DNA of 64,000 bases from an uncultured Oscillospiraceae bacterium (GTDB lineage: Bacteria; Bacillota; Clostridia; Oscillospirales; Oscillospiraceae): the NCBI GenBank assembly GCA_964615545.1, contig CAZTNP010000002.1, positions 1,064 to 65,063 of the forward strand, read 5' to 3'. The position numbers and the translations under genes were made by a program. Positions 42,231 through 64,000 of this stretch are shown piece after piece (within the stretch, counting starts at the first letter, position 1; every line of letters starts with the position of its first letter). The notes under the pieces are model-generated. The model searched no databases and had not been told where the DNA came from. It saw nothing but the letters and a program-made list of their open reading frames with translations.

Positions 42231-43397
42231 TTATGAAAGCTTCATAAGCTTCATTTCGCCGGGTGCAAGCCAAAAGGTTTCCTTGTTTCCATTTTGGAAG
42301 GTCAGCTTGATCTGATTGGCAAGGCGCTGATGGGCATTCACCACGGACATCCAGCGTTGCTCCCCTTCCGTCTCCCGATAATAGGAAATAATGGTGGGAT
42401 AGGAGAACTTACCGTTCACATCCAGCAAAACATCATCTGCGCAGAACCGTTTGCGGGGATCGTAGATGTGACCTATATGGTAAACGGCCGTCAACTCCAA
42501 ACGATCAAAAACATCCCGATAGAAGCAGTCGAAAATATACTGCTGACGAGAGATCATGTCAAATACCGGTGTTCTGACCCGGTCAGGGCCGCAAAGGGGC
42601 ATATTGACAAAGCTACTGCCTGCGCCGTACTGATACAGATGGAACCAGAGAATGCCCCGGGCACCGTGTGCCAAAGCCGTATAGATCTGCCAGCGGATAT
42701 CATCCTCCGTAGGGGTGCGAAATGCCCAATGGCCGCAGGCGAGCAATGTGGGGTAGAAGGGAATGCCGTGCTTTTGGGAAAGCTCCCAATATTTATCCAA
42801 CACAAGGAAATAGCTGTTGATGCCCACCTGCTGATTATGTGCTTCATTTAAGCACTGGGTATACTGGTCATAGCCCAGCAGAGGCACCTGAGACTGCTGT
42901 AAGTATTCGTCCACCAGTCTGGTATGCTCCTCCTCCGGTGCGCCGACAAGCATATCATAGTCTGAGCCGCCGCCCCAATAAGGCACCAAATTCCCAAAGG
43001 GTATCAGGCCGGGCGCATTTTCCATAATAAGCTGAACGGTGCGGATATAAAGGTCATTTTGATCCGGCCGGGGTTCGTCACCGACAAAAAAGCCAAAGGT
43101 CGCCGGATGGGTGCCAAAGTCCTCATAGGCCTTGCGAACGCCCTGCGCAAAAGCCGCCTCCCCTACCCGATCCAGTGTGCGGAAACGGGTCCGTTTGTCA
43201 CGAATGATCAGCTTCATATTTCGCTTTTCACATTCGTCCAAAATATCCAGCATTTGGCACTTATCATGGCGCGTGTGGTCAAAATCAAAGCTCATAGGCA
43301 GATTGCAATGCAGATCCTGCCAATCCTGCACGGCCTCCTTGCCAAAAACGCCGCTTTCGATATAGTTCCAAAAACCGAATTTTATCTGTCTTGTCAT
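42231..43397 (-). CDS. Cytoplasmic unclassified glycoside hydrolase-like TIM-barrel protein
   Basis: HPATFGFFVGDEP, GNL, YDQY, DIRWQIYTALAHGARGILWF; homologous to the 56576-58045 product; no signal peptide. Confidence 0.7.
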   Translation of the reverse strand: MTRQIKFGFWNYIESGVFGKEAVQDWQDLHCNLPMSFDFDHTRHDKCQMLDILDECEKRNMKLIIRDKRTRFRTLDRVGEAAFAQGVRKAYEDFGTHPATFGFFVGDEPRPDQNDLYIRTVQLIMENAPGLIPFGNLVPYWGGGSDYDMLVGAPEEEHTRLVDEYLQQSQVPLLGYDQYTQCLNEAHNQQVGINSYFLVLDKYWELSQKHGIPFYPTLLACGHWAFRTPTEDDIRWQIYTALAHGARGILWFHLYQYGAGSSFVNMPLCGPDRVRTPVFDMISRQQYIFDCFYRDVFDRLELTAVYHIGHIYDPRKRFCADDVLLDVNGKFSYPTIISYYRETEGEQRWMSVVNAHQRLANQIKLTFQNGNKETFWLAPGEMKLMKLS

Positions 43398-45613
43398 AAG
43401 ATCTCCCCCTCAGTAAGCGTGGTAATGCCCACAGGCAGGTCCAGGGTGAAATAGCCGTCCTGTGCCTGCACCTTCTCTGTTATATCTGCATAATGAGTCA
43501 AAATGGAGGCAGCTTCAAATGTGTTTTTCAGCACAAGGATGGTCGGCTTTTGCACTTGCAGTGTGACCTGCCGCAGAAAGCCCTTTTCTGCCACTGCGCT
43601 CACCAGTACACCGCTGTAACTGCGAAGCTTTTCAATGGAAATTTTCCGGCTGTTCCACGCCTTTGGAATGGCAGGGAAAAGATGTAGATAGCCCTGATGC
43701 TCCTGAAGGAGCATTTCCTGCAAAGCATCGCAGAAGCCGAACAGGCTTTCCAGCGTGAACGGGCGGTAGTGGAAGGTGGAATAACCCTTCTTTTGAAAGT
43801 CGCCGTTGAGATGAAATCCGTTGTCCGCCACAAAGCCGTCGGCAAACTGGCGGAGCTTTTCATATGCGGCATTGCCCTGGTAGGCCATGGCATAGATCTG
43901 CGCACACATGGCATAGGAAAAACCGACCCACATGCCCATGCCAAGCATTTCGATCTCCTCAAGTGCATTGTGATAAAGCGCCCGATCTTCTGCTGTATCA
44001 TAATGGATCAGGTGCAACGGATACAGGCACATCAAATGGGAAAAATGCCGATGGGACTGGGGTAACCGCATTTGCCTGTTAAGCCCGATATAGCCGTCCA
44101 CAATGCCAATGGAGTCCAGCTTAGACAGCACCTTTTCGTAAGGCGCAGGATCTTTGTGCAGTGTCTCACAGTAGGCGATCAGGCGGCTGTATAAATACCG
44201 CATAAGGGCCAGATCAAAATTGGAATTGGGCTCCAGGTAGGCTTCCTGCGTAGCATCGAATATCTCCGGCGATGTGGAAAGGGGCAAATAGAGCTTGCCG
44301 TCTTTTTCCTGCAAAAGGCCAGTGATCGCCGTGGCGATACCGTCTAAAAACGGAAAGGCACGATGCTCCAAAAATTCCCGATTGCCGGTGTAGAGATAGT
44401 ATTCGTCGAAGCTTTGGGCTGTCCAAATGCTCATGGTCGGAGAAAGGGCGTATTGTGACCAGCCGCCCATCGGCTTACCGTCGATCGTCGACACGCCGGG
44501 GATCAGCAATCCATCTACGCCAAAGAAATCCCTGGCGACCTTTTCATAGGCCGGCTTTTGCTCCCACAGATAATCCAGGAAGCACTCCCCTTCCTCCAGA
44601 CGGTTGGCCTTGAGATAGGCCTGATAGGAAAGCTGGGTATTGGTATCATGGTGATAGTCACCGCGCCACGGCGGCAGACAATCGTTATCTGCGGTCCACA
44701 CCCCCTGCAATGGCATAGGATAGGAGCCCTTACGGCTACAGGAGGCAAACAGATACCAGGAACGGTAGTAAGTTTTTTCCAATAGCTCATCACCAATGGA
44801 TATTTGGGATTTTTGCCAGTATGTCTCCCACCATGCAGTATGTTCCTGCTTCAGCTCTCGGTAACCGATCGTGGCCGCCTCCGAAAGCAGTGCTTTGGCA
44901 TGCGCCACGAAATCGGCGTGATCCCGGTTTGTCTGTACGGTGAAGTAAAGCTCCGTGCAGGTGGGCTTTTTTACGGTGTAAACAAAAACGCCATAGGAAA
45001 GATCCGTATGTGTCTTTTGGACATAATAGATAAAACCGTCCTCGGAAATGAAATCGGCCGCAGGATATCCCATGGACATCTGCACCGTCAGATCACTTTC
45101 CCTGCTTTGCTTTGGTACGGAAGAAATATAGTCTGGAATGTGCAGAGCGAATGCAAACTCTCCCTTTACCCTTGCCACTCCCAAAAACCGCGTGGCGTGG
45201 ACAAAGGCCTCTATGCTTTCTTCACCGGCGGAAACCGTTCCGATAGCCTTCTGAATGTCCACTTTTGCACTGTAGTCTTTCATTTCTTTTGCAAAGGAGA
45301 GCTCTATTCTGCCTGCGGTGATTTTGGACGGATAGGGGTATTCTCCGTAAATACGCTCAAAGAGCCTGTCCCTTTCCTGCCAATCCTCCTGCTTGCCGCT
45401 TTGAGATAGCTTGACAAGATTTTTATAGCAGAAGCCATCCTCCTGAGTAGCCGGATGGGGCCTGGTATCCCAAAGATCCACACGATCTACGGATAAACGG
45501 ATGGGACTGTCTCCATAAAGGAGACAGCCCATCCTTCCATTCCCCAACGGCAGTCCCTCATCCCAAGATGTAATGGGGTGGGAATACTGAATGTTATACC
45601 GTTGTAGGTTCAT
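43394..45613 (-). CDS. GH95-like (alpha-L-fucosidase/alpha-L-galactosidase family) glycosidase
   Basis: W.EGLPLGNG.MG, PLQGVW, PPW.GDYH, STSPE, HRHFSHL, QEMLLQ, LFPAIP.AW. Confidence 0.88.
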   Translation of the reverse strand: MNLQRYNIQYSHPITSWDEGLPLGNGRMGCLLYGDSPIRLSVDRVDLWDTRPHPATQEDGFCYKNLVKLSQSGKQEDWQERDRLFERIYGEYPYPSKITAGRIELSFAKEMKDYSAKVDIQKAIGTVSAGEESIEAFVHATRFLGVARVKGEFAFALHIPDYISSVPKQSRESDLTVQMSMGYPAADFISEDGFIYYVQKTHTDLSYGVFVYTVKKPTCTELYFTVQTNRDHADFVAHAKALLSEAATIGYRELKQEHTAWWETYWQKSQISIGDELLEKTYYRSWYLFASCSRKGSYPMPLQGVWTADNDCLPPWRGDYHHDTNTQLSYQAYLKANRLEEGECFLDYLWEQKPAYEKVARDFFGVDGLLIPGVSTIDGKPMGGWSQYALSPTMSIWTAQSFDEYYLYTGNREFLEHRAFPFLDGIATAITGLLQEKDGKLYLPLSTSPEIFDATQEAYLEPNSNFDLALMRYLYSRLIAYCETLHKDPAPYEKVLSKLDSIGIVDGYIGLNRQMRLPQSHRHFSHLMCLYPLHLIHYDTAEDRALYHNALEEIEMLGMGMWVGFSYAMCAQIYAMAYQGNAAYEKLRQFADGFVADNGFHLNGDFQKKGYSTFHYRPFTLESLFGFCDALQEMLLQEHQGYLHLFPAIPKAWNSRKISIEKLRSYSGVLVSAVAEKGFLRQVTLQVQKPTILVLKNTFEAASILTHYADITEKVQAQDGYFTLDLPVGITTLTEGEIL

Positions 45614-45631
45614 AATGATAGTCCTATATGA

Positions 45632-48600
45632 TTATTTAATGGGAATGATGAAGATACCTTCGCCGGGTTCGATGCCAGAGATCGTGCACTGGGTGTCGTC
45701 GAGCCTTGTGATGGTCGGCTCACCATTGCGATAAATTGCAACAGCGGATGCGCCGCTCATGGTCAGAACGACAGTACGGCTTTGGGCATTCGGATCCGAC
45801 TCAGCATTTACCAGCATAAAAGCATTATTTCTGCTATCGCTGACACTTTCGTTGCCTTCAAAGATACCGACCAGGAAAGCGCCACCTCCCTCGACCTTGA
45901 ATGCATCGTGCGTTGTCACAGCACCGGTCAGGTTTTTCAGCATCACATTGGAGTTACCCTCATCCACCTTCATAACGCCGCTCCAGATATACTGATCGTA
46001 GATCTCTTCGAATGTATGGACATTGGTGTTGATCTCCTTTGCCCAGCTATACAGATCGTCGGAATAGGTCTGGTCGTTATAGTTATGAATGTACTTGTAA
46101 CCGCTCTCGCCATTACCGCTGTACTGGTAGTAGATAAATTCCTTAACGCCGAATGCCAGGCCGGAGTTGATCTGGAAATTCAGCTCAGACTTGCCGTTCA
46201 GGTCGCGAACGCCTACCGAGTCACCGGAGGTCTGCACGATCACGCGCAGTTCCCGATCGTTCTCCTTAGCCTTATTGGCCATCAGCTCATAGCTGTAAAG
46301 ATACTTCTGTGTGCGCAGTGTCTGCTCATCTGTAAGACCGGATTTATCCTGCAGGAAGGGGTAATAGTCCCAGCAAATGTAATCCAGGTATCCGTTTGTC
46401 TGATTCAAATACTCGTTCAGATATTTCTCATAGGTAAAATCTCCGAACCATTGGTTCCATTTGTTTTCTGCGCCAAGCTGAGGCGAATTTTTGTTGATAT
46501 AAGGCGGCAGAAGATTGACAAACAGTTCCTGTGTCAGGCCGGACTCGCTGTAAGCCTTGGCCATCAGGCCGACCTTCTCCAGATCCGAATAGTAAGGCTC
46601 ATCAAAGCCAAAGTGTCCGGCATAACCGGCGTTATCACCGTAGCCGTATTCACTGTTCAGAATGGTATCCTTAATAATGCTCTGGAAAAGTGTGTTATCA
46701 ATGCCCGCATTCTTGGCCGCCGTTGCGCTGAAGCCGTATTTATCGGTCTGAGAGCCGCCCATGCCGTACAGTGTCCAATCCTTCACATAGTAGGTAATAC
46801 CGTACCGCTGTGCGATCCGCATAACGGTCTTTGCGATCTCGGCCGTCTTTGCGCTATATTCTGCGATCAAAGTCTTTGCCGACTCCGCATCCGTTGCGCC
46901 GGCCGCACTTCCGGCGTAGCCCTCATAAAGGGCGATCGCCTTGTTAAAGCCGGCCTCTGCGAGCTTGCTGTAAGCAACGATCAAATCGCTGTCATTGGTA
47001 ATTTTCAGGTCCGTCGTAGGTGCCGCATAGGCGGTAAACCGGATCTTCGCCGCATCGTCGATGCGATAGCCGGAGATCTGCTTTACAGACACCAAATTGC
47101 TGCAGGAGAAGATGGTATCGGTAAGCGGACGATTGAAGTTTTCCTCTGCCAAAACCTTACCATCAGCATCGGTGACCCTGAAGTTATCCACCTGCAACAC
47201 ATTTTCGCCCCATTCGCCGGCGCCCACAATATAAACATGGTACGGGCCACCGTCTGTGGGGAGGGACAGGGTGTAATTGCTCCAAATGCCGTCAATATAT
47301 TTGATGTCAACACCGTTACCGCTTGAATGGGCATAGCGTGAATCCTCAGTGTTCACCAGATCCGCGCTTGTGGTCCAGTCAACAGCCCACCAATTGGCAT
47401 CCTCGGGAACATACGCATCGAAAGACACCGTGCTACCGGCGGGATAGGCAGATTTTGTGATAAAGCCCAATCCGTTGGGGATCTTTCCCAGGGAAAGCTG
47501 AGCGGCATAATTGTAGGTTCTCAGTTTGATCGCCGTATTGCCACTCTTATCTGTTTCCTTGAGTGCAAAAATAGTATTGTCCAAGCCCTGTTCAAAATCT
47601 TCTTTAACCTCTGTACCATTCTTCTGCTTAATCATCACATTATCAATTTGAACGGCAAGCGTTTCTTCATTTTTAATTCCCCATTCGCCCTTTGCTCCAA
47701 CAAAGTAGACATAATAGTTTTGTCCGTCGTCGGGGAGTGTTACAGAATATTTTGCCCACTCGTTAACCTTGGATTGCATCTGTGCGCCTGAAGGATTAGT
47801 ACCAGTCCACTTATAAAGATCAACATCATTCAAATCCGTTGTCCAACACACAGCCCACCAAGGAGCGCTTTCACCTTCTGCCACAGTGACCTCAGGTACA
47901 TAAGCATCGAATTCGATCGTACTACCGCCGGGATATGCTTCTGCTGTGATCAGGTTCATGCCGTCACCGGCGTTGTCATTGATATAATCAATGTACAGCT
48001 CGATCACATTGCCCATCCGATCCGTAGTACCGCCGATCGTGTGATCCGATACGGCTGTACCGGCACTGAACAGGCCGGCAGATACGCCTTTTTCAAAATC
48101 ATCGGTATACTGGGTGCCGTCCGGTGCGGTAATGACCACATCATCCAGGAGCAATTCATTGCCATTCCACTCACCCTTTGCACCGACAAAGTACACATAG
48201 TAGGAATTGCTGTCACTGGGAAGTGTAACAGAATAGTTTGCCCACTCGTCAACCTTGGATTGCATCTGTGCGCCCGAAGGATTGGCACCAGTCCACTTAT
48301 ATAGATCAACATCCTTCAAATCCGTTGTCCAGCACACAGCCCACCAAGCGGTGTCTGAGGGTACAAACGCCTTGAAGCTCACCGTACTGCCGCCGGGATA
48401 AGCAGCCTTTGTGATAAAGCTCATAGGACTGTTTTCATTTAGTATGTCGATCTTGATAGCGGCCACATTGCCGGAAATGGGCTTCACGGTGCCGAGCCAG
48501 CTATAGGAGGCCGATTCATCGTCAGCGCTCACTGTAGCCGTCAGAACATAACTGGCGCTTTCACTGCCAGAAGTCAAAATCAGCTTGCCGTCGACGATCT

Positions 48601-50626
48601 TTGCGCAGTCGCCACCATTCGATACGCTCCACGCAACAGTAAATTCGTTTCCTTTGACTGTCCATGTGCTTGGAAGCGCAGTCCCGTTGGCGATCTCCGT
48701 ACCGTAGGATGCCTTCAGATCCTGCAAAGCTTCCTGAACGGTCACATGGCTCTCTCCCAGCAGATGTGCATTTACCACATCGTTCCCGTTCACATCGAAC
48801 AATCCGGCAGATACGCCTTTTTCAAAATCATCGGTATACCGGGTGCCGTCCGGTGCGGTAATGAGAACATCGTCAATCAGCAACGGCTTATCTGCCCATG
48901 TCTCATTCTTTGCACCACCAAAATAAATGTAATAGGGTCCGCCACTGACCGGTAAGGTTACCGTGTATGCATTCCATTTTCCTACTTTTTCTGCATCATA
49001 CAGATTATTTTGGGCACAAGTATAAATATCATTTCCATCCAAACCAGTGGTATAACCTACGCCCCACCAATGGTTGTTTTCATCGGTAATATCCGGTTGA
49101 TAAGCCTTAAAGCTGATTACAGAACCGGCAGGATAAGTATCCTTTGTAACGAAACTCATAGTTCCGCTCTCATTGATCTTATCAATTGCAATTGCTACGG
49201 CATAGCTACTTGTGGGGGTGATGTCACCGATCAGTTGCCAGGTGACTGCATTGGCACCGGTGTTGAACAAACCGGCATTCAGGCCGTATTCAAAGCTGTC
49301 CGTTACCGCATTTTGGCCGGGCTCGGTGATCGATACATCGGTGACCAGCAAGGGCTTATCTGCCCATGCACTATTCTTGGCACCGCCAATATAGATGTAG
49401 TAGGGGCCGCCGTCGGAGGGCAAGGTCACGGTATACTCGCTCCAATAGCCCACATTGGCTACCTGATATAGACTATTCTTGGCACAAGTGCTGTAAATAT
49501 CGTTTCCGTCCGAACCGGTGGTATAGCCCACGCCCCACCAATGGTTGTCATTATCCGTAATATCCGGCTGGTATGCCTTAAAGGTGATGGTAGAGCCGGC
49601 GGCATAAGCGCGCTTGGTAATGAAACTGCTGCCGTTTTCTTGCATCAGCTCCATATGAAGCTCGGCCACACCACCGGATGTGGGTGTAAATGCCTTATGA
49701 TAGTCATACTTTGCGTATTCTATCGCCGCAAGGTGATAGGTATACAGCATTTGTACAAGGGCTTTCTGATCATCGGAAGTACCGGCCTTATGGTACTGCC
49801 GGACGATATAGTTCATCGGGCCATAGCTCACGCTAAGGCTCTCATCGCCCTTGGAGACGGTCAGTGTGTACTGCTTGTCCAAATTCGGGGGGTAAATGTT
49901 CCCGATCTCCACATAGTACAGTCCACTCTTTTGTACGGGCGTGTAGGTACTCTCCCCTACCTGAAAACGGTAATCTGTGATATCACCGGCATTCAGCGCA
50001 AAATAGTAGCGAACTGCCACACGGGAGGCAAACACAAGGGATGCACCGTAATAGCGAATGCCGCTGACAGAGCCGGTACATGCCATTTCTTCCACATCGC
50101 CGGATGCGGGGATATTGGCTTTTTCCAATTCTGCACAGCCTGCATTGGCAAGGCTTTCCGTACGATAGCCCAGTGCCTTCTGTGCGGCCGCACCGTAGTG
50201 CAGCATGGTCAGTACCATGGTCTTTTCTTCATCATCGTACTCGCCTTTGAGGATCTCCTCGGCGTAGGCTTTCACGGTATAATCCTTAGAAAACACGGAT
50301 ACGCCGCCGCTCACCACCTCAAGGGTGATCGGATCCGTCATTTGTGCGGCCGCCAAATTCACGGAGAATACATAGCGGCCATCTTTTTTGGTCGCATCTG
50401 AGGCAGAAACGGTGGTCGTTTTACCGCCTACGGTAAACTTGACCGTTGTGCTTTCAGGTGCATCCAGCGTCAGATAGAAATTGGTACAGATCTGATCGCT
50501 CAGTGTCACATTCCAGTCCTGCACCGGGTTGGTTTCTTCCGCCGCAACAGCTCCGGCAGGCAGTAAAGAAACTACCAGCAACAGAGCCATAAGCATGCTG
50601 AAAAACCGTTTTGTGTGTTTACGCAT
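45632..50626 (-). CDS. Giant secreted modular protein: N-terminal domain, 5 repeated Trp-rich modules, Ig-like spacer, C-terminal GH-like catalytic domain
   Basis: Sec signal peptide; repeats of FITK.AY..GS..SF.A..P...WW.V.WTT; C-terminus (FTAYAAPT..FDEP..CWDYYPF) paralogous to 56576-58045. Confidence 0.85.
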   Translation of the reverse strand: MRKHTKRFFSMLMALLLVVSLLPAGAVAAEETNPVQDWNVTLSDQICTNFYLTLDAPESTTVKFTVGGKTTTVSASDATKKDGRYVFSVNLAAAQMTDPITLEVVSGGVSVFSKDYTVKAYAEEILKGEYDDEEKTMVLTMLHYGAAAQKALGYRTESLANAGCAELEKANIPASGDVEEMACTGSVSGIRYYGASLVFASRVAVRYYFALNAGDITDYRFQVGESTYTPVQKSGLYYVEIGNIYPPNLDKQYTLTVSKGDESLSVSYGPMNYIVRQYHKAGTSDDQKALVQMLYTYHLAAIEYAKYDYHKAFTPTSGGVAELHMELMQENGSSFITKRAYAAGSTITFKAYQPDITDNDNHWWGVGYTTGSDGNDIYSTCAKNSLYQVANVGYWSEYTVTLPSDGGPYYIYIGGAKNSAWADKPLLVTDVSITEPGQNAVTDSFEYGLNAGLFNTGANAVTWQLIGDITPTSSYAVAIAIDKINESGTMSFVTKDTYPAGSVISFKAYQPDITDENNHWWGVGYTTGLDGNDIYTCAQNNLYDAEKVGKWNAYTVTLPVSGGPYYIYFGGAKNETWADKPLLIDDVLITAPDGTRYTDDFEKGVSAGLFDVNGNDVVNAHLLGESHVTVQEALQDLKASYGTEIANGTALPSTWTVKGNEFTVAWSVSNGGDCAKIVDGKLILTSGSESASYVLTATVSADDESASYSWLGTVKPISGNVAAIKIDILNENSPMSFITKAAYPGGSTVSFKAFVPSDTAWWAVCWTTDLKDVDLYKWTGANPSGAQMQSKVDEWANYSVTLPSDSNSYYVYFVGAKGEWNGNELLLDDVVITAPDGTQYTDDFEKGVSAGLFSAGTAVSDHTIGGTTDRMGNVIELYIDYINDNAGDGMNLITAEAYPGGSTIEFDAYVPEVTVAEGESAPWWAVCWTTDLNDVDLYKWTGTNPSGAQMQSKVNEWAKYSVTLPDDGQNYYVYFVGAKGEWGIKNEETLAVQIDNVMIKQKNGTEVKEDFEQGLDNTIFALKETDKSGNTAIKLRTYNYAAQLSLGKIPNGLGFITKSAYPAGSTVSFDAYVPEDANWWAVDWTTSADLVNTEDSRYAHSSGNGVDIKYIDGIWSNYTLSLPTDGGPYHVYIVGAGEWGENVLQVDNFRVTDADGKVLAEENFNRPLTDTIFSCSNLVSVKQISGYRIDDAAKIRFTAYAAPTTDLKITNDSDLIVAYSKLAEAGFNKAIALYEGYAGSAAGATDAESAKTLIAEYSAKTAEIAKTVMRIAQRYGITYYVKDWTLYGMGGSQTDKYGFSATAAKNAGIDNTLFQSIIKDTILNSEYGYGDNAGYAGHFGFDEPYYSDLEKVGLMAKAYSESGLTQELFVNLLPPYINKNSPQLGAENKWNQWFGDFTYEKYLNEYLNQTNGYLDYICWDYYPFLQDKSGLTDEQTLRTQKYLYSYELMANKAKENDRELRVIVQTSGDSVGVRDLNGKSELNFQINSGLAFGVKEFIYYQYSGNGESGYKYIHNYNDQTYSDDLYSWAKEINTNVHTFEEIYDQYIWSGVMKVDEGNSNVMLKNLTGAVTTHDAFKVEGGGAFLVGIFEGNESVSDSRNNAFMLVNAESDPNAQSRTVVLTMSGASAVAIYRNGEPTITRLDDTQCTISGIEPGEGIFIIPIK

Positions 50627-56563: not shown

Positions 56564-56575
56564 TTACTCCTTTTC

Positions 56576-58045
56576 TTAGAACGGGATCACAAAACGGCCT
56601 TCGCCGGGCTCCAATTGGAAGGTATACACGCCATCCGACGGAAGCTCAACGACTATTTTCTCTCCGTAGCGGTACATCAGCAGATGGGTCGCATTGGAGA
56701 ATTTTACGGTGACCTGATTGCTAAGCTTTTCAATGGGGTCGGTCACATTGACGATCATGAAAGCATCCTGCGCGGTGCTGCTTTCGTCTTTTGCCGTAAA
56801 CACACCGGCCATCACATCCTGTGTGCAGGACACAAACTCCATACGCTCGTGGCTGTCCAAAGCGGACGTCAGGTTTGCAAAGAGCTGGTTGTCGACCATC
56901 TCACTGGCATTTTTGTAGAGCGTTCCGGCCCAGTCGTATGCCATATAGGCATCCTCCATGGCGTGGACTTCATTATTGACCTGCTTTGCCGCATCGTACA
57001 CCCATGTGTAGGTATCCGTCTTAAAATCATAGAGGGAATAGCCGTTATCGGAGGTAAAGTTGGTCTCATTGACCGAAGAACTGTAGGTATAGTAGATCAG
57101 CTCTCGCACACCGAATGCCATGTTGGAATACACCTGGAACCGAAGGTCACCAATGTTATCCAGGCTTCTTGTACCGGTAAAGTCGCCCTTAGCCTGTACG
57201 AATGCACGAACCTCGCAGTCATTTTCCTTTGCCTTGAGAGCCATCAGCTCCAAATTGTAATAGTAGCTGTCCCGAATGAAGTTCTCGCTACCGTTATTCT
57301 TAAAGGGATAATAGTCCCAGCAGACATAGCCAAGCAGTGGTGCCACATGCTTGAAATAGTAGTCCACATACTCCCGGTAGGTATAATTCAAATTGACAGA
57401 GAGCGTAGCGGAGTTATCTGCCACATAGCCGGGGTTCAGGTTGATAAAGATCTCGCCGCCCACATCGCTATTAAGTTCAATGTACTTATTGTACAGCTCC
57501 ACCTGCCAGGCGATGGTATCCAGCTCCTGCACATTGGGTTCATCGAAGCCAAAGCTACCGCCATAACCGGGATGGTCAATATAGGCATTGTTCTCATCGA
57601 ACATCTTGGAGATGACCTTTTCAAAGTCCTCGTAGGTGTCAACGGTGTCTTCAAAATTCCGGCCTAAGCCGTAGAACGACCAGTCACGGACATAGTATTT
57701 GATGCCATACTTTTCCGCAAGATCCAGCACGGTCAGTGCCTCCTGCTCGGCAACCTCACTGCGCAGTGCAATGGTGTCAAACACATCCTCGCCGGTCAGA
57801 GACGAACCGCCCTCATAAAGTGCGATCGCCTTGGTAAAGCCTGCCTCCGCAAGCTTTTTATAGGCCTCATCCAACTTGTCGCTTACCTTCTTATTGAGGG
57901 TAGGCGCGGCATATGCTGTAAACTGCATACCCTTTTCCGCTTTTTCAAATGTGGGCTCTGTTGCAGACTTTGTGGTTCCACACCCGATCAGCAAGCAGGA
58001 GAGAAGCATTCCCACCACAAGTATTTGCCATTTAAACTTCTTCAT
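56576..58045 (-). CDS. Lipoprotein, unclassified glycoside hydrolase-like TIM barrel plus beta domain
   Basis: Lipobox LIGC; HPGYGGSFGFDEP, FINL, CWDYYPF, LRFQVYSNMAFGV..LIYY, C-terminal LEPGEG. Confidence 0.75.
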   Translation of the reverse strand: MKKFKWQILVVGMLLSCLLIGCGTTKSATEPTFEKAEKGMQFTAYAAPTLNKKVSDKLDEAYKKLAEAGFTKAIALYEGGSSLTGEDVFDTIALRSEVAEQEALTVLDLAEKYGIKYYVRDWSFYGLGRNFEDTVDTYEDFEKVISKMFDENNAYIDHPGYGGSFGFDEPNVQELDTIAWQVELYNKYIELNSDVGGEIFINLNPGYVADNSATLSVNLNYTYREYVDYYFKHVAPLLGYVCWDYYPFKNNGSENFIRDSYYYNLELMALKAKENDCEVRAFVQAKGDFTGTRSLDNIGDLRFQVYSNMAFGVRELIYYTYSSSVNETNFTSDNGYSLYDFKTDTYTWVYDAAKQVNNEVHAMEDAYMAYDWAGTLYKNASEMVDNQLFANLTSALDSHERMEFVSCTQDVMAGVFTAKDESSTAQDAFMIVNVTDPIEKLSNQVTVKFSNATHLLMYRYGEKIVVELPSDGVYTFQLEPGEGRFVIPF

Positions 58046-60308
58046 TGGCTTTTCCTGCCTCCTTTTTCTTTCGTTGCGTGATCACGCATACAGTCACGAC
58101 GGCCGCGAGCACAATAACGGCAGCTACAACAGCCACAGGCAGTACCCACACAGGGGTGCCTTCATCCGCAACATAGGATGCATTCAGTGCGACCTCTTTT
58201 TCCCAGCCGGTGTCCACCGTATCCAGGCCGCGATCAGCATAGCTGACAAGCTCCGGTTCCTCGATCACGACCTCGGGTGCCTCATTATAGATCTCTGCCG
58301 TATTGGTCACGGAGAAATTGTCGATCGTCCAGTAGCTCCAGCCGGTACAGGTGATGCCAATGTAGCCCTCCGGCTTGGCACCCTTGAGTGTGCTGTAAAG
58401 TGTGTATTCCGTTTCATCCGCGCGCTTCATATAAAGGGAGATCAGATTCTTCTGCGCGACAAGCTTAAAGCACACGGCCGCATCCGGCGAGATATCCTCT
58501 CTTTGAACAGTCTTTTCGTCATAGGTGATATCCGTAAAATAGGATGCAGGGATCGGTCTTACCTGGGTATAGGTCTCCCCTTTCAAGGGGCTGATGCTCT
58601 CCACCTTGTAAAGTGCAGAGGCCGCAGTTTCCCAGGGCGTTTCCGTATCACCGGGGCGAACGCGGATCAGGAACATGCCATAGCTGCCGTAGGTCGTGGT
58701 ATTTACATTCTTCTTACCGAAGTCAATGCCGATCCAGCGATCTAAGTATGTAGCATTTTGAATTTCATTTTCATTATCCGTTGCCAAGATGCTGGTCAAC
58801 TCGAAAGTCAGCTCAAAGGTCTCATATTCATAGGCCGGTCCAAAGAAGGTGCCGTCCAGGCAACCGTTATAAGACAGCTCTCCATCGTTTACAGAAATGG
58901 AGCCGGAGACCTCATTGATCGCATAATCGGAATTTCCGTTGCTTCCCAAGCGGTTTTGCGAGAAATCGTCTGCGAAGGACTTTGTAGTGATCACCCGATA
59001 AATGCCGTTATCCACTGTCACATCATCCAGGTAGATCTTGCCGGTGATGTCAGTTGCCGCCGCAAAACCGGTGTAGCCGGCATATTCCGTGATCCCATTG
59101 CCGGAAAGAAGCTTTCTTCCGTTTTCCGAAACGGTGAAGCTACCGTTTTTCAGCACGGTCAAGCTAAGGGTACTTCCCTTCATAGCAGTGCGGAAGCTAC
59201 CTTGTGCCAGTACGGTTTCCGTTCCCTCTGCATCATAGCGCACCATTTGACAACCGTTTTTATCAAATACCAGTGCATAGGATCGCAGGAATGGATCCTC
59301 ATAGGTATCAGAAATACCGAATACATATGCAAGCTTCTCTTCCCCAGTGGAATTGGAAAGATCCACAGTAAATGCGGTGCTCAGCACCTGCTCGGCGTCA
59401 TTCAGGTAGGTGTCCTCCTGCTTGATCGCATCATTGGTAAGCAGGCGATCACCTTTTTCTGCACCGGAGATACAGAGCTTACGAACGGCACCGTCCTCCA
59501 CCACCTGGGTAGAAAACTCGGAGGGGTTGGAGATGAGGGTGATCAGTTCAAACAGATCATCGGACTCATCGTTAAAATCCTCTGTATAGGTGCCGGTATC
59601 CGTCTCGATCACAATGTTATCGAGCATATAGCCACTAAAGGCATAATCTGTGAATACGATATTGCAGTTATGGAAGGAACGGCCGTCAGACAATGTGACC
59701 TCCTTGCTCTTGGAGGTATCAAAACTGTACCCTCTCGGTGCCATATAGATGGTAGCGGTCTTTTCGTTTTTGGGCACAATCTTGATACTGACCCACTTTC
59801 CGGCAATATTGTCGCTTCCAAAGCCCCAGTCGCTCCAGTTGGTATCCGCAAAGCCGAAGTCATCCGTTTCGCTTGCCATCATGGAGCCGTAGCACATAGG
59901 GTCACCCTTGTCCTTAAAATCGCCCAGGTAGTCCTCCGGTTCGATAATATCGGGAAAATCCAAACCGAACCAGCTTCCGGTAGACGGGAATTTCAAATCG
60001 AAGCTCAGGCTGTAAAGCTCCCAGTACCAGTCTTTGGAAATCAAAACGGTATTTTCACCGTTGGCATTTTTGCCCTTGAATTGCAGAGCCATTTCCGGGT
60101 CGGTGATCTGCTCCACGGCAAATGCACCATCGGAGGCATAGGCGCTCCATAATTCCAGGTCATATCCGCCGATCACGCTTGCATTGTCGAAATCATCGGC
60201 AATGGTGACGTTCTCCCGTTCTGCCGATGCCGGAAACACCGACAGCAGACAGCAGGCGATCAACGCAAGCGTGAAAATTCTTGCAAGTGATTTTCTTTGC
60301 ATGATCAT
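58032..60308 (-). CDS. Membrane-anchored extracellular protein with lectin/ConA-like beta domains
   Basis: Signal peptide; three segments each bounded by DDF..LD[ND]; GY.G[FI] motifs; C-terminal TM helix and basic tail; ATG 60308 after AAGGAG. Confidence 0.75.
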   Translation of the reverse strand: MIMQRKSLARIFTLALIACCLLSVFPASAERENVTIADDFDNASVIGGYDLELWSAYASDGAFAVEQITDPEMALQFKGKNANGENTVLISKDWYWELYSLSFDLKFPSTGSWFGLDFPDIIEPEDYLGDFKDKGDPMCYGSMMASETDDFGFADTNWSDWGFGSDNIAGKWVSIKIVPKNEKTATIYMAPRGYSFDTSKSKEVTLSDGRSFHNCNIVFTDYAFSGYMLDNIVIETDTGTYTEDFNDESDDLFELITLISNPSEFSTQVVEDGAVRKLCISGAEKGDRLLTNDAIKQEDTYLNDAEQVLSTAFTVDLSNSTGEEKLAYVFGISDTYEDPFLRSYALVFDKNGCQMVRYDAEGTETVLAQGSFRTAMKGSTLSLTVLKNGSFTVSENGRKLLSGNGITEYAGYTGFAAATDITGKIYLDDVTVDNGIYRVITTKSFADDFSQNRLGSNGNSDYAINEVSGSISVNDGELSYNGCLDGTFFGPAYEYETFELTFELTSILATDNENEIQNATYLDRWIGIDFGKKNVNTTTYGSYGMFLIRVRPGDTETPWETAASALYKVESISPLKGETYTQVRPIPASYFTDITYDEKTVQREDISPDAAVCFKLVAQKNLISLYMKRADETEYTLYSTLKGAKPEGYIGITCTGWSYWTIDNFSVTNTAEIYNEAPEVVIEEPELVSYADRGLDTVDTGWEKEVALNASYVADEGTPVWVLPVAVVAAVIVLAAVVTVCVITQRKKKEAGKANEEV

Positions 60309-60325
60309 TCTCCTTTTTTTCATAC

Positions 60326-61285
60326 TTAACATCCGAAATGCTTGCCCACTCTATCCAGCAATTTCTTTACGATCACGACAATAGGAGCAGCCACGACCGT
60401 AAAGCAAAGACCCATTGCGGCACCCCATTCCAAATCGGAATTGGCGCCCTTGATCAGTCCGTTGACCAGGTAGGCGATTGTCTGGGAGGACTGTCCCGGG
60501 CCGCCCTCCGTCAAAAGTTCAACCTGAATAAATATGGTAAATACGGTCGTAATGCTTCCCAAAATGGCCACGGAAATGGTCGGCCAAATCATGGGGATGA
60601 CGATTTGGAACAACTCACGGAACCGACCTACGCCCTCCATATGGGAGTATTCCATTACATCCTTTGGCAGATTTTCCATTGCGGCGCCGATGATCAGAAT
60701 GTTATAGCCTGTACCTACCCAAAGGCAGTAGATCAGGACGAGCCAAAAGGCCAGCTTGGTATCACCGAACCAGCTTGGCAGATCCTTTGCCGCAACGCCC
60801 AGCTTTTCCAGCAGAATGTTGATGGGACCCACACTGGTATCAAACATGAATTTGAACACCATGGTATAGATGACAATGGAAATGATGGACGGCAGGAAGT
60901 ATACAATGCGGAAGAAGCTTCTGCCGGGCATTTTCTTATAAAAGAAATAAGAAAGAATGATTGAGAGCAGCAGCAATACCAAATTGTTTGCGCCGGCCAA
61001 AAGAGAGTTCTTCACTGCGTTTTTGATCTGCGGCAGTGCATTCCACTCCTGAATAAAGCGCTTGTAGTTATTCAGCGACCATTCCATGGTGCCGGTCTTA
61101 TAGTTCATCGTCTGGAACGACATAACCACGGAGTCGATATTCACATACACAAAGAATATCAGCCACTGCAACAGCGGCAAGGCCAGCATGCCGCAGATAA
61201 AAAGCGTTCGCCTTGTCTTACGGGAAAGCCCCTTCTTTTCCGAGGCCAGCCTTGCGGAACCGGTTTTCATTTTTAAGCCTTTCAT
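60326..61285 (-). CDS. Carbohydrate ABC transporter permease (MalF-like)
   Basis: FFRIVYFLP, EAA-like loop (MEYSHMEG..F.IVIPM.WP), GGP. Confidence 0.92.
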   Translation of the reverse strand: MKGLKMKTGSARLASEKKGLSRKTRRTLFICGMLALPLLQWLIFFVYVNIDSVVMSFQTMNYKTGTMEWSLNNYKRFIQEWNALPQIKNAVKNSLLAGANNLVLLLLSIILSYFFYKKMPGRSFFRIVYFLPSIISIVIYTMVFKFMFDTSVGPINILLEKLGVAAKDLPSWFGDTKLAFWLVLIYCLWVGTGYNILIIGAAMENLPKDVMEYSHMEGVGRFRELFQIVIPMIWPTISVAILGSITTVFTIFIQVELLTEGGPGQSSQTIAYLVNGLIKGANSDLEWGAAMGLCFTVVAAPIVVIVKKLLDRVGKHFGC

Positions 61286-62151
61286 TATTCCTTAATGCCT
61301 CCTCCCGTGAGATTGCCAAGCATTTGTTTTTGGAATATGGCAAAGAGCACGATCACCGGAACGATCGTCACCAGCATAGCCGCAAACAAAAGCGGATAAT
61401 TTCCCGTGCCGGTGGCAACAGCGGAAATATGGGTAAGACCCACCGCCAATGTGGGGTGCTGATCGTAAAACAGAGAGGGATACCAGTAATCGTTCCAAAA
61501 GCCTAAAAAGCACAGGATCGAATAAGTGGTAAGTGCTTTCTTTGCCAGAGGCATCATAATACGGAAATAGATCTGCAGGTCACTGGCACCGTCGATCATA
61601 GCGCTCTCCGCAAACGACCAGGAAATGGATTTATAGTAGGCATGCAGATACAGGAAGCTACCGCCAAATGCGCCGCCCTGCAAGATCAACATGCCAAAGT
61701 AGTTATTGGAAAGCCCCGTGTTGTTCATCAGCTTGAAAACTGCCGGAAGTGCGCCGACCGTAGGGATCATGGAAGAAACGATAATCACCATATAGATCAC
61801 CTGATTGCCCCGGAAATCGTACTTAGCCAGTGTGTAAGCCGCCGCAGACTGCATCATCATAGAAACCACTGTCAGACCCAGTGCAAGGGAGACCGAGTTG
61901 AGGAACATACTCACCAGGGATAGAGACTCAGATCCAGTCACCTCCCCCATATTAAGAAACACATCCTTAAAGTTGTCAAAGGTGATATGCTCCGGAATGC
62001 CCAAGGGATCCTGGATAAATCCCCACGCATCGTTCAGGGAGCCTAAGATCAGATAGAGAAACGGATAAAGCAGTGTAGCCGCATATATCAGCAGAAGGAC
62101 AAACACGACCATCGTCACGGCATCCCATTTTCTCTTCTTATGAAGCTTCAT
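61285..62151 (-). CDS. Carbohydrate ABC transporter permease (MalG-like)
   Basis: AAYTLAKY.F.G, ESAMIDGAS..IYFRIMMP, WNDY, FQK. Confidence 0.93.
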   Translation of the reverse strand: MKLHKKRKWDAVTMVVFVLLLIYAATLLYPFLYLILGSLNDAWGFIQDPLGIPEHITFDNFKDVFLNMGEVTGSESLSLVSMFLNSVSLALGLTVVSMMMQSAAAYTLAKYDFRGNQVIYMVIIVSSMIPTVGALPAVFKLMNNTGLSNNYFGMLILQGGAFGGSFLYLHAYYKSISWSFAESAMIDGASDLQIYFRIMMPLAKKALTTYSILCFLGFWNDYWYPSLFYDQHPTLAVGLTHISAVATGTGNYPLLFAAMLVTIVPVIVLFAIFQKQMLGNLTGGGIKE

Positions 62152-64000
62152 TCTTTTTTCCTCCTTTTGCTAATATTTTCGCCGAGTCGTAAATCAGCTT
62201 GCCGATCACAGAACCGAAGCCGTGATTACAGCTTGCCTGCTCGTCAAAAAATTCCCAAATCGTGCCGGTGCGTTCTGCCATTGGGAAGAAACGCTCCTCA
62301 CATTCGTGCAGTACCAAATCATATCTTTCCATTTTGTACAGACACATCAGCCGCAGAACACCGCCGATAAACAAAGCAGATGGGCAAACGGTGTAGCCGC
62401 AATGGGCAAATCCGCTGTAAAAGTTTTCTGCAAATGTCCTGCTGTCCGGCGCAAGGCCAAAATACTGGGCAAAGATCTGGCACAGCTCACTGCAATTATC
62501 CGTGGGCACGATCTTCCCATCTACGCGCAGGGCATTATCTATGAAAACCGTTCCATTGAAGGACATTTTGAAAACCGTTTCCCTGACCTGCTCGGATCTT
62601 TTCAGCAGTGAAGGATCCTGCAGGATCGTTCCAGCCGCCCGCAAAGCATCCGCATAAAGCATATTGGTCGGGAAATTGATCCCATCCACAAAGTCCGTTG
62701 CCCTGCTCCACTCAATAAAGACCCAGCCCTGAAGATTTTCCAGCAAGCCAAGCTCGTTTTCATAACCGCTGAAAAAGTCTAAAATATCCCGGATACGCTG
62801 TCTATGTTGCCGGATAAACTCCACATCACCGGTGCGCTTTTCGTAGTCCTCCAATTCCAGCACATACCACAGAATCCAGTTAGGGATATAACCATTCTCA
62901 TTTGAAACCTCTGCTGGATAACACATCGGCATTATGCCATTATGGGGGAATATTCTGTTTTGATAGAGAAGATAGTTTTCAAGAAAATTTCGTTCCACTT
63001 TATTTTTCCCGGTAAAAAAGCATTCTGCTTTTCCAAGAAAATAACTGTCACAAAGCCATCCAGCCCGTTCTCTGGAGGGGCAATCTGTAAAAATATCATA
63101 GGCGTTTTGTGCAAATGTATTTTGTGCCGCTTGAAAAATTTCCTGCAGTACCGGATTTGACCCCGGAAGCAATCTGCTCTGGATATCAGGATTCTCTATG
63201 GAGATCATCGAAACAAACCGAATCTCCGCTTTTCCTTTTATGACAAGCTGAATATACTTTGCAGAGTAAACCTCTTGAGAATAGAGTGTATATGTCCCCT
63301 TTTCCAGTGTCCACTTCAAACCGTGGATGATATGCTCCCGGTTAAACTTCACATACCCCTCTGACAGAACATCATCGTATGTCAGCCAAAGGTCTGTCTT
63401 TTCTGCCACCTGAACCTGTATACAGAATTTCCCACAGTATACCCTGGGCAGGGCATATATTAAGTAATGAAGATCATCCGATGTTTCCTCTGTTATCCGA
63501 AAGGACTGCAGTTCTTTGCTTAGCACGCATTGGCAATCTTGCCGCTTAAACGCATCCAATTTTCTTCCGTCATCCAGTAACCGGGTCAAATCATTTTCCC
63601 ATACAGAATGATTATCCATATACGCTTTGCCGTATTTTAAAAGCTGACCTGGTATCCGCTCATTCATCGAGCGGGATACATTACGCTCCAAAAGCTGTGG
63701 GCAGGAAATCGTGTGTGTCTTCAAGATTGGAAAATCCATCCCATTGGCTGCAAACCGATCCCTTTGCATACTGTAAATCTCTAAGAAGCCGCGCTGACTG
63801 GACATTCTCTCAACTTTGCTCAGTTTGTCTGTCATCCACTGGCAAATAAAATCTTCTGTATGCAATATTGCATTTTCATTTTGTAAAACCGTTGCAGCAA
63901 ATAGCGGTTCATCCTTTACCGTACAAAGGGTATTGGTATTATTAGACTGTACAAAAAACTGAACACAGTTTTTCTGCCGTGTCAAAAAACGAGAAATGTC
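62138..64000 (-). CDS. GH78 alpha-L-rhamnosidase-like protein (5' end beyond window)
   Basis: DCPSRERAGWLCD, FIEW, TGTIWE..SCNHG; the frame stays open to the window edge. Confidence 0.85.
   Translation of the reverse strand, partial: DISRFLTRQKNCVQFFVQSNNTNTLCTVKDEPLFAATVLQNENAILHTEDFICQWMTDKLSKVERMSSQRGFLEIYSMQRDRFAANGMDFPILKTHTISCPQLLERNVSRSMNERIPGQLLKYGKAYMDNHSVWENDLTRLLDDGRKLDAFKRQDCQCVLSKELQSFRITEETSDDLHYLIYALPRVYCGKFCIQVQVAEKTDLWLTYDDVLSEGYVKFNREHIIHGLKWTLEKGTYTLYSQEVYSAKYIQLVIKGKAEIRFVSMISIENPDIQSRLLPGSNPVLQEIFQAAQNTFAQNAYDIFTDCPSRERAGWLCDSYFLGKAECFFTGKNKVERNFLENYLLYQNRIFPHNGIMPMCYPAEVSNENGYIPNWILWYVLELEDYEKRTGDVEFIRQHRQRIRDILDFFSGYENELGLLENLQGWVFIEWSRATDFVDGINFPTNMLYADALRAAGTILQDPSLLKRSEQVRETVFKMSFNGTVFIDNALRVDGKIVPTDNCSELCQIFAQYFGLAPDSRTFAENFYSGFAHCGYTVCPSALFIGGVLRLMCLYKMERYDLVLHECEERFFPMAERTGTIWEFFDEQASCNHGFGSVIGKLIYDSAKILAKGGKKNEAS

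Follow-up and report, generated by a model that had tools for sequence, protein, structure and literature searches.

The minus strand from 42231 to ~64294, most of it inside the window (the whole stretch of DNA that was analysed, 64,000 nucleotides), probably carries an AraC-controlled operon of the gpPUL type from an uncultured gut Clostridia bacterium, in which a glycan is captured at the cell surface, cleaved and imported; the HexNAc chemistry proposed for it is its least certain part. The preliminary description had reported ten co-oriented, mostly abutting genes, and when the ORFs were checked all of them were present at their minus-strand coordinates. Neighbouring genes are spaced by -14 to +18 nt, with the exception of 156 nt between the pair of giant genes, P0003 and P0004. 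The features are as follows.

42187..42222, minus strand: intrinsic-terminator-like hairpin with a 16-bp stem and T-rich tail, 9 nt past the P0005 stop
42231..43397, minus strand: P0005, 388 aa, cytoplasmic, distant DEP family member (A1 profile, 1.8e-7)
43394..45613, minus strand: cytoplasmic GH95 glycosidase (alpha-L-fucosidase / alpha-L-galactosidase family; Glyco_hydro_95_cat, 1.3e-48)
45632..50626, minus strand: P0004, 1664-aa secreted enzyme with N-terminal domain, 5 modules and C-terminal DEP domain
50783..55120, minus strand: P0003, 1445-aa non-catalytic lipoprotein with Cys-rich units and 7 modules
50943..52675, minus strand: 483-bp tandem array (3.6 copies, 87% matches, Tandem Repeats Finder score 2522)
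55133..56563, minus strand: solute-binding lipoprotein (SBP) of the ABC importer (SBP_bac_1, 1.3e-24)
56576..58045, minus strand: P0002, 489-aa lipoprotein of the GH42-related DEP family, (beta/alpha)8 barrel and C-terminal beta-sandwich
58032..60332, minus strand: P0001, 766 aa, signal peptide, three ConA-like/L-type-lectin-like domains and C-terminal TM anchor
60326..61285, minus strand: ABC permease 2, CUT1 type (BPD_transp_1, 1.2e-15)
61285..62151, minus strand: ABC permease 1, CUT1 type (BPD_transp_1, 1.8e-11)
62138..64000, continuing to ~64294 past the window edge, minus strand: cytoplasmic GH78-like (alpha/alpha)6 glycosidase, first gene of the operon (Pfam)

The hairpin is a strong terminator that marks the end of the operon, and the ten genes form one unit terminating there. 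The flanks are housekeeping genes, Tex and UvrB, with uvrB as the next gene past the terminator. Directly upstream of the operon, just outside the window, we found a divergent AraC-family gene (HTH_18 1e-20, AraC_binding), which was kept in 8 of 16 fully testable related loci. Extending the contig rightwards had been expected to reveal both a regulator and an ATPase; the regulator was there, but the ATPase was not. The CUT1 set of the locus consists of the SBP and two permeases, with the ATPase encoded outside; MalK-type candidates occur elsewhere in the same genome (C20:12427-13521), and an ATPase gene is embedded in the related loci L026, L027 and L029. An antisense ORF of 825 aa on the plus strand (55190-57667) was rejected as a conserved gene, since it appears conserved only because it overlies conserved genes.

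To annotate the neighbours in related loci, we used ORF calls, tblastn, clustering and Pfam scans. Of 31 testable related loci, 28 have P0001 directly upstream of the P0002 ortholog; directly downstream of the latter comes the SBP (31 of 35 loci), and both permeases are found upstream (23 of 25). This five-gene core is syntenic in scattered gut and rumen Bacillota MAGs, which bears out the earlier view of the locus as one co-conserved glycan-utilisation unit. Across distant Bacillota the P0001 gene stays firmly linked to those of the transporter and of the lipoprotein enzyme P0002, and a P0001 relative sits between the permeases in Haloplasma (E 8.6e-31). The GH78-like gene was present in 13/21 related loci, the modules in 10/16 and GH95 in 8/16.

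Two of the cytoplasmic glycosidases matched Pfam domains. The GH78-like protein matched Bac_rhamnosid6H (PF17389; 2e-18, 67 bits against a cut-off of 24.5) and rhamnosidase B, RhaB (2okx; E 8e-11). PF17389 was its sole GH78 match, and the N- and C-terminal GH78 beta-domains were not detected; the frame is up to 718 aa long, with a likely start at M23 or M28. The GH95 protein contains the catalytic domain PF22124 (166 bits against a cut-off of 27) and the N-terminal domain Glyco_hyd_65N_2 (PF14498, 39.8 bits), and matched the alpha-L-fucosidase 8zbv in the PDB at 6e-41. Translations of the GH78-like, GH95 and P0005 genes lack a signal peptide, while those of the SBP, P0002 and P0003 carry the lipoboxes VTAC, LIGC and LTGC, respectively. 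The best NCBIfam matches of the SBP, both sub-threshold, were bind_CPR_0540 and the GlcNAc/chitobiose binder NgcE.

The extra surface proteins belong to families without a name, as had been supposed, and none of P0001-P0004 matched a cohesin, dockerin or SLH domain of Pfam at E <= 0.01, in agreement with the preliminary description. P0001 had no Pfam match over its 766 aa. Its AF2 model (pLDDT 84) consists of three beta-sandwich domains, 38-245, 248-445 and 448-684, and the protein has a cleavable signal peptide, a C-terminal TM helix and a basic tail. Foldseek matched the model to laminin LG / neurexin LNS arrays and to BT3469. Among the VIA matches were the lectin domain of galactocerebrosidase (Z 18.6) and the YesU-like 1oq1 (Z 16.8), followed by the Emp47p CRD, legume lectins, CBM66 and GH16. 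We rejected the idea that P0001 shares the module of P0003 and P0004 (best E 0.005); it has three other beta-sandwich domains instead.

That module, of ~155 aa, is common to P0003 (7 copies) and P0004 (5 copies). In P0003, which matched the A24_N_bact zinc-ribbon at 4.5e-9, Cys-rich zinc-ribbon-like units alternate with and then precede the Trp-rich modules; the 483-bp array encodes modules 4-7, and the DEP domain is absent. P0004 is composed of a signal peptide, which is its only sorting signal, a ~280-aa unclassified N-terminal domain, 5 modules with a 110-aa insert, and the DEP domain at ~1171-1664. A second giant of this genome (C7:45706-51483) has an N-terminal domain with 40% identity to the one in P0004. 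The 12 module copies in the two giants are unclassified and of beta-sandwich type. Against Pfam the module gave only sub-threshold matches, a partial MAM in both giants and CBM_3 on a relaxed scan, and its profile matched PDB entries only at chance level (topoisomerase II and a CBM-bearing endoglucanase, E 0.09-0.7). All four surface proteins had been thought to share a module and a catalytic domain. In fact two share the module (P0003 and P0004) and two the catalytic domain (P0002 and P0004), and not all four are related in this way. The proposed SusD-like surface layer fared similarly: the extra surface proteins are present, while a SusD/SGBP-like role for P0001 and P0003 is suggested by fold and synteny.

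The three proteins bearing the DEP domain were confirmed to be members of a single family, and these paralogs occupy three locations: the lipoprotein P0002, the C-terminus of the secreted P0004 and the cytoplasmic P0005. P0002 and the P0004 C-terminus share 36% identity (E 1e-81), while P0005 matched P0002 weakly (E 2e-5) and had 135 homologs, all unnamed. Neither P0002 nor P0005 matched Pfam, P0002 did not match NCBIfam, and NCBIfam scans of the five unnamed proteins returned only noise. Sequence searches against the PDB gave, for P0002 with phmmer, only two chance-level matches to a 34 kDa membrane antigen (E ~1), for the A1 (DEP) profile only a marginal match to GH42 (E 0.59), and for P0005 nothing significant. 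At E <= 1e-3 the family comprises 3919 representatives (clusters at 50% identity), and many members are giants of 1200-2200 aa with the domain at the C-terminus.

Considering fold and profile comparisons, the DEP family appears to be an unnamed TIM-barrel family derived from GH42. The AF2 model of P0002 (pLDDT 93.4) shows a barrel at ~40-370 and one beta-sandwich at 370-489, and its best VIA matches were GH42 (Z 22.4, 22.3 and 22.2) and GH164 (Z 21.3), with a continuum of clan GH-A barrels ranked below them. By fold, its nearest neighbours are beta-galactosidases of GH42 and an alpha-L-arabinopyranosidase. The hhalign comparison of the DEP family with GH42 (97.2%, E 4e-11, 254 columns) paired D168-E169 with the GH42 N-E, D-x-Y-P with W-D-x-Y-P, and V283 with the GH42 nucleophile Glu. 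Furthermore, 13 of 82 distant DEP members matched Pfam Glyco_hydro_42 (PF02449; best 2e-10), although P0002 itself does not. The two families thus share the W-D-x-Y-P motif and have homologous barrels, with an acid/base Glu conserved where beta4 ends. In contrast with GH42 enzymes of ~650-710 aa and three domains, P0002 has 489 aa and two domains and lacks the middle trimerisation-type alpha/beta domain, and in this locus DEP members occur as secreted or lipidated proteins or in fusion with module arrays.

The catalytic residues differ as well. Among 107 domains from 61 loci and 82 distant representatives, D168-E169-P170, N202 and D244-x-Y246 (P0002 numbering) are invariant. D-E-P was found in 105/105 aligned domains, whereas GH42 has Asn-Glu there, and the beta7 nucleophile Glu of GH42 is replaced by Val/Ile followed by Gln. 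The latter position, Q284 next to V283, varies (Q/L/W/E/H), and no conserved acid was present on beta7 or beta8 in the DEP alignments. P0005 retains D-E-P, N and D-x-Y, with Leu aligned to Q284. In the P0002 model, D168-E169 lie at the end of strand 161-168 and D244 at the end of strand beta6; secondary structure and alignment place D168, E169, D244 and Y246 in the putative active site.

As the acid/base Glu of GH42 is kept, the preceding Asn is Asp and the beta7 nucleophile is lost, we infer neighbouring-group catalysis. The DEP enzymes may cleave beta-linked N-acetylhexosamine by a substrate-assisted mechanism in the manner of GH20 and GH123, and this is the least certain of our assignments. 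In GH20, a catalytic D-E pair sits at the barrel's C-terminal end (PMC10570127). By motif, the DEP family would resemble GH20 and GH123 in its adjacent Asp-Glu at the C-terminal end of a strand, a later Tyr and Asp, and the lack of an enzymic nucleophile. However, the resemblance detected is one of motif pattern only: GH20 and GH123 were absent from the best 50 VIA matches of P0002, and PDB sequences gave no match to them either. GH185 (DUF4838) was set aside as the identity of the DEP family, these proteins having no match to it in Pfam. The beta-GalNAc-ases of PMC11087588 were set aside indirectly: structures of them have been solved, and no PDB chain matches the DEP family by sequence. A hint of HexNAc in the preliminary description gained indirect support from the D-E motif without a nucleophile and from GH112 galacto-/lacto-N-biose phosphorylase, which recurs in related loci, being present in 10 and missing from most of them. 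These GH112 proteins scored 944-966 bits against TIGR02336 (1,3-beta-galactosyl-N-acetylhexosamine phosphorylase; cut-off 560), and in the closest related locus, L003, the gene lies between AraC and the GH78-like gene. Further clues to HexNAc are the sub-threshold NgcE match of the SBP and the GH112 copy that the source genome itself carries.

In the working model for the operon, P0004, with modules and a catalytic domain, and the non-catalytic P0003 would retain a polymeric glycan on the cell surface, where P0004 and the lipoprotein P0002 would cleave it to oligosaccharides. P0001 and the SBP would capture these beside the permeases, import would be powered by a MalK/MsmX-type ATPase encoded elsewhere, and the cytoplasmic GH78-like, GH95 and P0005 proteins would then trim deoxyhexose and other residues. 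The substrate would likely contain Gal-beta1,3-HexNAc units that bear L-fucose or L-rhamnose, its source being host mucin or type-1 chains or else a bacterial surface polysaccharide, and the resulting disaccharide would pass to the GH112 phosphorylase. The rhamnosidase-like gene fits mammalian glycans poorly, which counts against a host substrate. A bolder version of the model is offered only tentatively: the DEP proteins may constitute a large new GH family that came from GH42 through loss of the nucleophile and an Asn-to-Asp change, which would have switched a clan GH-A barrel to substrate-assisted action on HexNAc, and P0001 may be a dedicated surface partner of the ABC importer, a Gram-positive functional counterpart of SusD/SGBPs that passes oligosaccharides from P0002 to the SBP.

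It is rather unlikely, though the operon logic would be the same, that the DEP proteins are two-carboxylate glycosidases of GH42-like specificity acting on the plant cell wall. D244 or D168 could serve beside E169 as the second carboxylate of a classical mechanism, and D244 is invariant at the end of beta6. Such enzymes, retaining or inverting, would act for example on a beta-galactoside or alpha-L-arabinopyranoside, as the closest folds would suggest. Their target would be a wall glycan with much Rha, Fuc or L-Gal, and Gal, such as pectic rhamnogalacturonan, arabinogalactan-protein or fucosylated xyloglucan. Removal of side chains from pectin and xyloglucan is a typical role of GH78-like and GH95 genes, which would suit this target. 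Many related loci come from rumen, omasum, or horse or sheep hindgut, and 6 carry a GH2 beta-mannosidase-like gene; many hosts being ruminants, plant or microbial glycans would fit. On the other hand, the change from Asn to Asp and the loss of the beta7 Glu are universal over thousands of clusters, which is the pattern of neighbouring-group catalysis, the GH112 equivalog that recurs in related loci is HexNAc-specific, and no pectin lyase, esterase, GH28 or GH43 was seen in any examined locus. It is very improbable that the surface proteins instead remodel the organism's own wall or capsular polysaccharide, or anchor it, or act as adhesins, with the ABC importer recycling fragments: the giant repeat proteins look like adhesins, the P0001 fold matches the staphylococcal lectin-type adhesin domains Aap and SraP (VIA) and the 483-bp tandem amplification suggests rapidly varying surface proteins, but no glycosyltransferase, flippase or polymerase genes occur in or beside any examined locus, the combination of AraC, SBP and cytoplasmic exo-glycosidases marks a locus as catabolic, and the locus was not found among 150 genomes of the source organism's own family, which counts against a housekeeping envelope role.

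The claim of an undescribed system was too strong because the architecture is that of a gpPUL, defined in Roseburia and Eubacterium rectale by a regulator, a transport system and at least one enzyme that degrades polysaccharide (Sheridan et al. 2016, PMC5320581). Here these are the divergent AraC gene, SBP_bac_1 with two BPD_transp_1 permeases, and GH95 and GH78-like enzymes above Pfam cut-offs together with three GH42-related domains, which are predicted enzymes. Glycan binding in gpPULs is thought to come from enzyme modules and the SBP (PMC5320581), whereas here there is a 1445-aa non-catalytic lipoprotein separate from the enzymes, and a lectin-fold protein with a TM anchor is encoded between the permeases and the enzyme. 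Also unlike a gpPUL, this locus has no Pfam family for three of five glycosidase-type genes, for the repeated module or for the lectin-like membrane protein. In gpPUL-type loci it is usual to find multi-module surface enzymes. Glycan use by gut Bacillota is poorly mapped, because many of the proteins have no family. A full-text literature search found no description of such a locus type or of a nucleophile-less GH42 offshoot. Since the key surface enzymes, the modules and the lectin-like protein fall in large unnamed families, the locus directs attention to carbohydrate enzymes that are new, not to a system of a new kind, and the general picture of gpPULs is unaltered by it. With this locus, a family of ~3,900 clusters that neither Pfam nor NCBIfam names, and that lacks a relative of solved structure, gains a defined syntenic setting. 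The catalytic motif, unlike that of the nearest family GH42, leads to a chemical prediction, neighbouring-group catalysis on HexNAc, and the new binding-type module and the lectin-like membrane protein closely tied to the ABC importer are candidate binding parts. If the model holds, one GH family and possibly a CBM family would be added, and the locus would be an example of how capture, cleavage and import are organised at a Gram-positive surface.

The arrangement may also be likened to the Sus systems of Bacteroidota, in which surface enzymes and surface lipoproteins without catalytic function supply a dedicated importer. Here, however, there is no outer membrane, the importer is of ABC type, and none of the ten genes matched SusC or SusD in Pfam. 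Another parallel is found in the HMO/mucin loci of Roseburia and Eubacterium, which combine an ABC transporter with GH136 lacto-N-biosidase, GH112 and, in some cases, GH29/GH95 (Pichler et al. 2020, PMC7335108). Both are Clostridia systems with an ABC importer and GH95, and in both an outer enzyme may free a (fucosylated) Gal-HexNAc unit for cytoplasmic trimming. By contrast, those loci contain nothing equivalent to the GH78-like gene, the giant module arrays or P0001. Our searches, which were not aimed at GH136, returned no match to a named lacto-N-biosidase family for any locus gene; by analogy, the DEP family would fill the place of the lacto-N-biosidase. GH112, the remaining shared element, occurs in the related loci counted above and elsewhere in the source genome, on contig C19, with its own transporter and outside this locus.

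All ten open reading frames proposed in the preliminary description were real and lay on the minus strand in the positions proposed. Neighbouring genes overlapped or abutted (spacing of -14 to +18 nt), and the sole larger spacer, of 156 nt, separated the two giant genes, which encode P0003, a 1445-aa repeat lipoprotein, and P0004, a 1664-aa secreted protein with a C-terminal DEP domain. Extending the contig to the right, where a regulator and an ATPase had been expected, revealed a divergent AraC-family gene, and no ATPase gene was present within the locus. The borders are marked by the following features.

Window 42222-42187, minus strand: T-tailed hairpin with a 16-bp stem, 3' of the last stop codon
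G000:C2:65503-66420 (L002:1004-1921), plus strand: AraC-family regulator (HTH_18, AraC_binding, Cupin_2), right of the window edge, divergent and directly upstream of the operon

Beyond the terminator-like hairpin, uvrB is the first gene, and the housekeeping gene tex comes next after the AraC-family gene. Since the divergent AraC gene is directly upstream of ten abutting genes, the unit is an AraC gene with a ten-gene operon. The frame of the first, GH78-like gene reached up to 718 aa on the extended contig, with M23 or M28 as the probable start. The source genome, G000, is a MAG of 1.5 Mb that is 78% complete. An 825-aa antisense ORF (window 55190-57667, plus strand) overlies the genes of the solute-binding protein (SBP) and P0002, a 489-aa lipoprotein enzyme; it was present in related loci L003 and L005 too, and is most likely a by-product of the conserved coding sequence on the opposite strand.

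In Pfam, the sole match of gene 1 was Bac_rhamnosid6H, both permeases matched BPD_transp_1, the binding protein matched SBP_bac_1, and gene 9 matched Glyco_hydro_95_cat and Glyco_hyd_65N_2. Searches against PDB sequences agreed, with RhaB 2okx (8e-11) for the GH78-like gene and GH95 fucosidases (down to 6e-41) for the GH95 gene. Signal peptides are missing from the products of these two genes and from P0005, a 388-aa cytoplasmic DEP-family protein. Lipoboxes occur in P0002, the SBP and P0003 and a signal peptide in P0004, and P0001, a 766-aa lectin-fold protein, combines a signal peptide with a TM anchor at its C-terminus. By the three-criterion definition of a gpPUL (PMC5320581), the locus is one on all three counts, and among characterised systems it comes closest to the Roseburia/Eubacterium GH136/GH112 loci, which hold an ABC transporter, GH136, GH112 and GH29/GH95 (PMC7335108). 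Based on the Pfam scan, it belongs to neither the Sus-like nor the cellulosomal systems. As such, the system type, first put forward as a candidate undescribed one, is known. What is new are parts of it, namely a nucleophile-less GH42 offshoot, a repeated module and a transporter-linked lectin-fold protein, for none of which was a description found in full-text literature searches.

The first of these parts is the DEP family, which shares a D-E-P motif among P0002, the P0004 C-terminus and P0005. P0002 had no Pfam or NCBIfam match and no significant match among PDB sequences, and the PDB sequence search with P0005 was empty. P0002 was 36% identical to the C-terminal 490 residues of P0004 (E 1e-81) and matched P0005 weakly (E 2e-5). 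It has at least 199 close homologs, and those with a name are all "hypothetical". A family profile retrieved 3919 proteins at E <= 1e-3, 2406 at <= 1e-10 and 534 at <= 1e-30 from 1.84 billion representatives, many of them 1200-2200-aa proteins with the DEP domain C-terminal. The AF2 model of P0002 (pLDDT 93.4) was a (β/α)8 barrel with a C-terminal β-sandwich, for which Foldseek returned only clan GH-A-type barrels at ~10% identity. A full PDB scan placed GH42 on top (5xb7, Z 22.4, rmsd 3.8, 356 aligned; 4ucf, Z 22.3; 1kwk, Z 22.2), followed by GH164 (Z 21.3) and a continuum at Z 16-19. On the sequence side, the sole match of the family profile among PDB sequences was a GH42 (E 0.59), 11% of the members of an ESM-Atlas neighbour cluster carried Glyco_hydro_42, 13 of 82 distant members matched PF02449 (best 2e-10), and hhalign against eight GH42 proteins from genomes of the same order as G000 gave 97.2%, E 4e-11 over 254 columns. 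Together, this sequence evidence turns the GH42 link into one of homology.

In the hhalign alignment (P0002 numbering), D168-E169 lay opposite the GH42 N-E acid/base motif, D244-x-Y246-P opposite W-D-x-Y-P, and V283 opposite the nucleophile Glu. A survey of 107 domains from fetched loci, repeated on 82 distant representatives, found G163, D168, E169, P170, N202, D244, Y246 and G312 invariant and Q304 at 95%. The β7 end varied (Q, L, W, E, H or K), with no conserved acid on β7 or β8. Combined with the GH42 homology, this residue pattern marks the DEP family as a GH42 offshoot failing two defining features of GH42. Neighbouring-group enzymes, GH20 among them, are characterised by an adjacent Asp-Glu pair and no enzymic nucleophile. 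Considering this likeness, we infer from the alignment and the secondary structure of the model that DEP enzymes may cleave HexNAc linkages by substrate assistance; the D-E pair of GH20 has been described (PMC10570127). Some related loci hold extra ~400-aa DEP-family paralogs between the two permease genes (L015:5486-6700, L044:3720-5156, L046:3755-6270).

The second part is the module, a Trp-rich unit of ~155 aa. In P0003, which has no catalytic domain, a lipobox precedes Cys-rich units that alternate with the first modules, of which there are seven in total; these units matched Pfam A24_N_bact (4.5e-9) and could be read as zinc-ribbon-like. In P0004, five modules and a 110-aa insert separate the ~280-aa N-terminal domain from the DEP domain. 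All twelve copies have 17 invariant positions in common, and the module had no match among PDB sequences and only a sub-threshold MAM match in Pfam. Modules 4-7 of P0003 are encoded by a repeat.

Window 50943-52675, in the P0003 gene: tandem array with a 483-bp period, 3.6 copies, 87% matches

This array indicates that whole modules were amplified recently. The module had been described as common to all four surface proteins; on sequence comparison, P0001 does not contain it. The P0001 model (pLDDT 84) showed three β-sandwich domains, which a disordered linker connects to a TM helix, and Foldseek matched it to laminin LG arrays, neurexin LNS arrays and BT3469. In a full PDB scan it matched the lectin domain of galactocerebrosidase (Z 18.6, rmsd 2.7, 180 aligned), YesU-like 1oq1 (Z 16.8), the Emp47p CRD, legume lectins, CBM66 and GH16 enzymes; the fold is thus the ConA-like lectin/glucanase one. 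Domain 3 was the most conserved in an alignment of 26 orthologs from fetched loci. In many P0001 orthologs (e.g. L015:7649-9940, L031:7657-9963, L021:7522-9837) a Gly-Cys-Gly/Lys-Ser motif, which recalls C-terminal sorting signals, stands just ahead of the TM helix and basic tail at the C-terminus; P0001 of the window does not have it.

Scanning 185,579 species genomes yielded 61 related loci, nearly all in MAGs of gut, faecal or rumen origin that belong to Oscillospiraceae, Faecousia, Acutalibacteraceae, Christensenellaceae, Erysipelotrichaceae, unclassified Bacilli and Ca. Scatosoma. Synteny, proposed earlier as a check, was borne out by tblastn: related gut and rumen MAGs keep the gene order and orientation of this locus, with a divergent AraC gene, then GH78-like, the two permeases, P0001, P0002 and SBP, and after these the giants, GH95 and P0005. 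Co-occurrence was counted only in loci whose contig permits the test.

Co-occurrence in testable loci
P0001 directly upstream of P0002: 28/31
SBP directly downstream of P0002: 31/35
Both permeases upstream: 23/25
GH78-like gene: 13/21
Modules: 10/16
Second DEP domain: 9/16
GH95: 8/16
AraC: 8/16
P0005: 6/16

Haloplasma and Izemoplasma have distant versions, and in Haloplasma a P0001 relative also lies between the permeases (E 8.6e-31). Further genes in related loci encode a GH2 β-mannosidase-like protein (6 loci), Flg_new repeat proteins (5) and a MalK-type ATPase (3). A strong match was absent from all of 150 further genomes in the family of the window (134 genera, one genome being 99% complete and of the window's genus), and the G+C of the locus (window 42000-62000) was slightly higher, at 0.49-0.53, than that of its flanks at 38-42 kb and 62-64 kb (~0.45). 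These two observations suggest horizontal spread, and the locus may have been acquired horizontally.

Neighbour clustering over all loci found one recurrent family missing from the window, a ~720-aa protein in 10 loci. It is a GH112 (Lact_bio_phlase, 6e-157), which scored 944 bits against the equivalog TIGR02336 (1,3-β-galactosyl-N-acetylhexosamine phosphorylase; cut-off 560) and 717 bits against B. longum LNBP. In the closest locus, L003 (P0002 identity 78%), it lies between the AraC and GH78-like genes. The nearest named relatives of the SBP, both sub-threshold, were bind_CPR_0540 and the GlcNAc/chitobiose binder NgcE. Taken with GH95 and the D-E motif, these clues point to Gal-β1,3-HexNAc units bearing deoxyhexose as a likely substrate. 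Plant or microbial glycans stand as open alternatives, kept plausible by the rhamnosidase-like gene and by the ruminant sources of related loci. The source genome also holds a GH112 locus.

G000:C19:1508-8400 (L064): AraC, SBP and two permeases ahead of GH112 (TIGR02336, 966 bits)

This is a classical set for galacto-/lacto-N-biose import and phosphorolysis, separate from the window locus.

Two distant DEP-family members are encoded elsewhere in G000, a 1925-aa giant (C7:45706-51483, plus strand), whose head is 40% identical to the P0004 N-terminal domain, and a 523-aa protein (C10:16524-18095, minus strand) flanked by ORFs of 1607, 976 and 804 aa. They may mark further loci of the same type.
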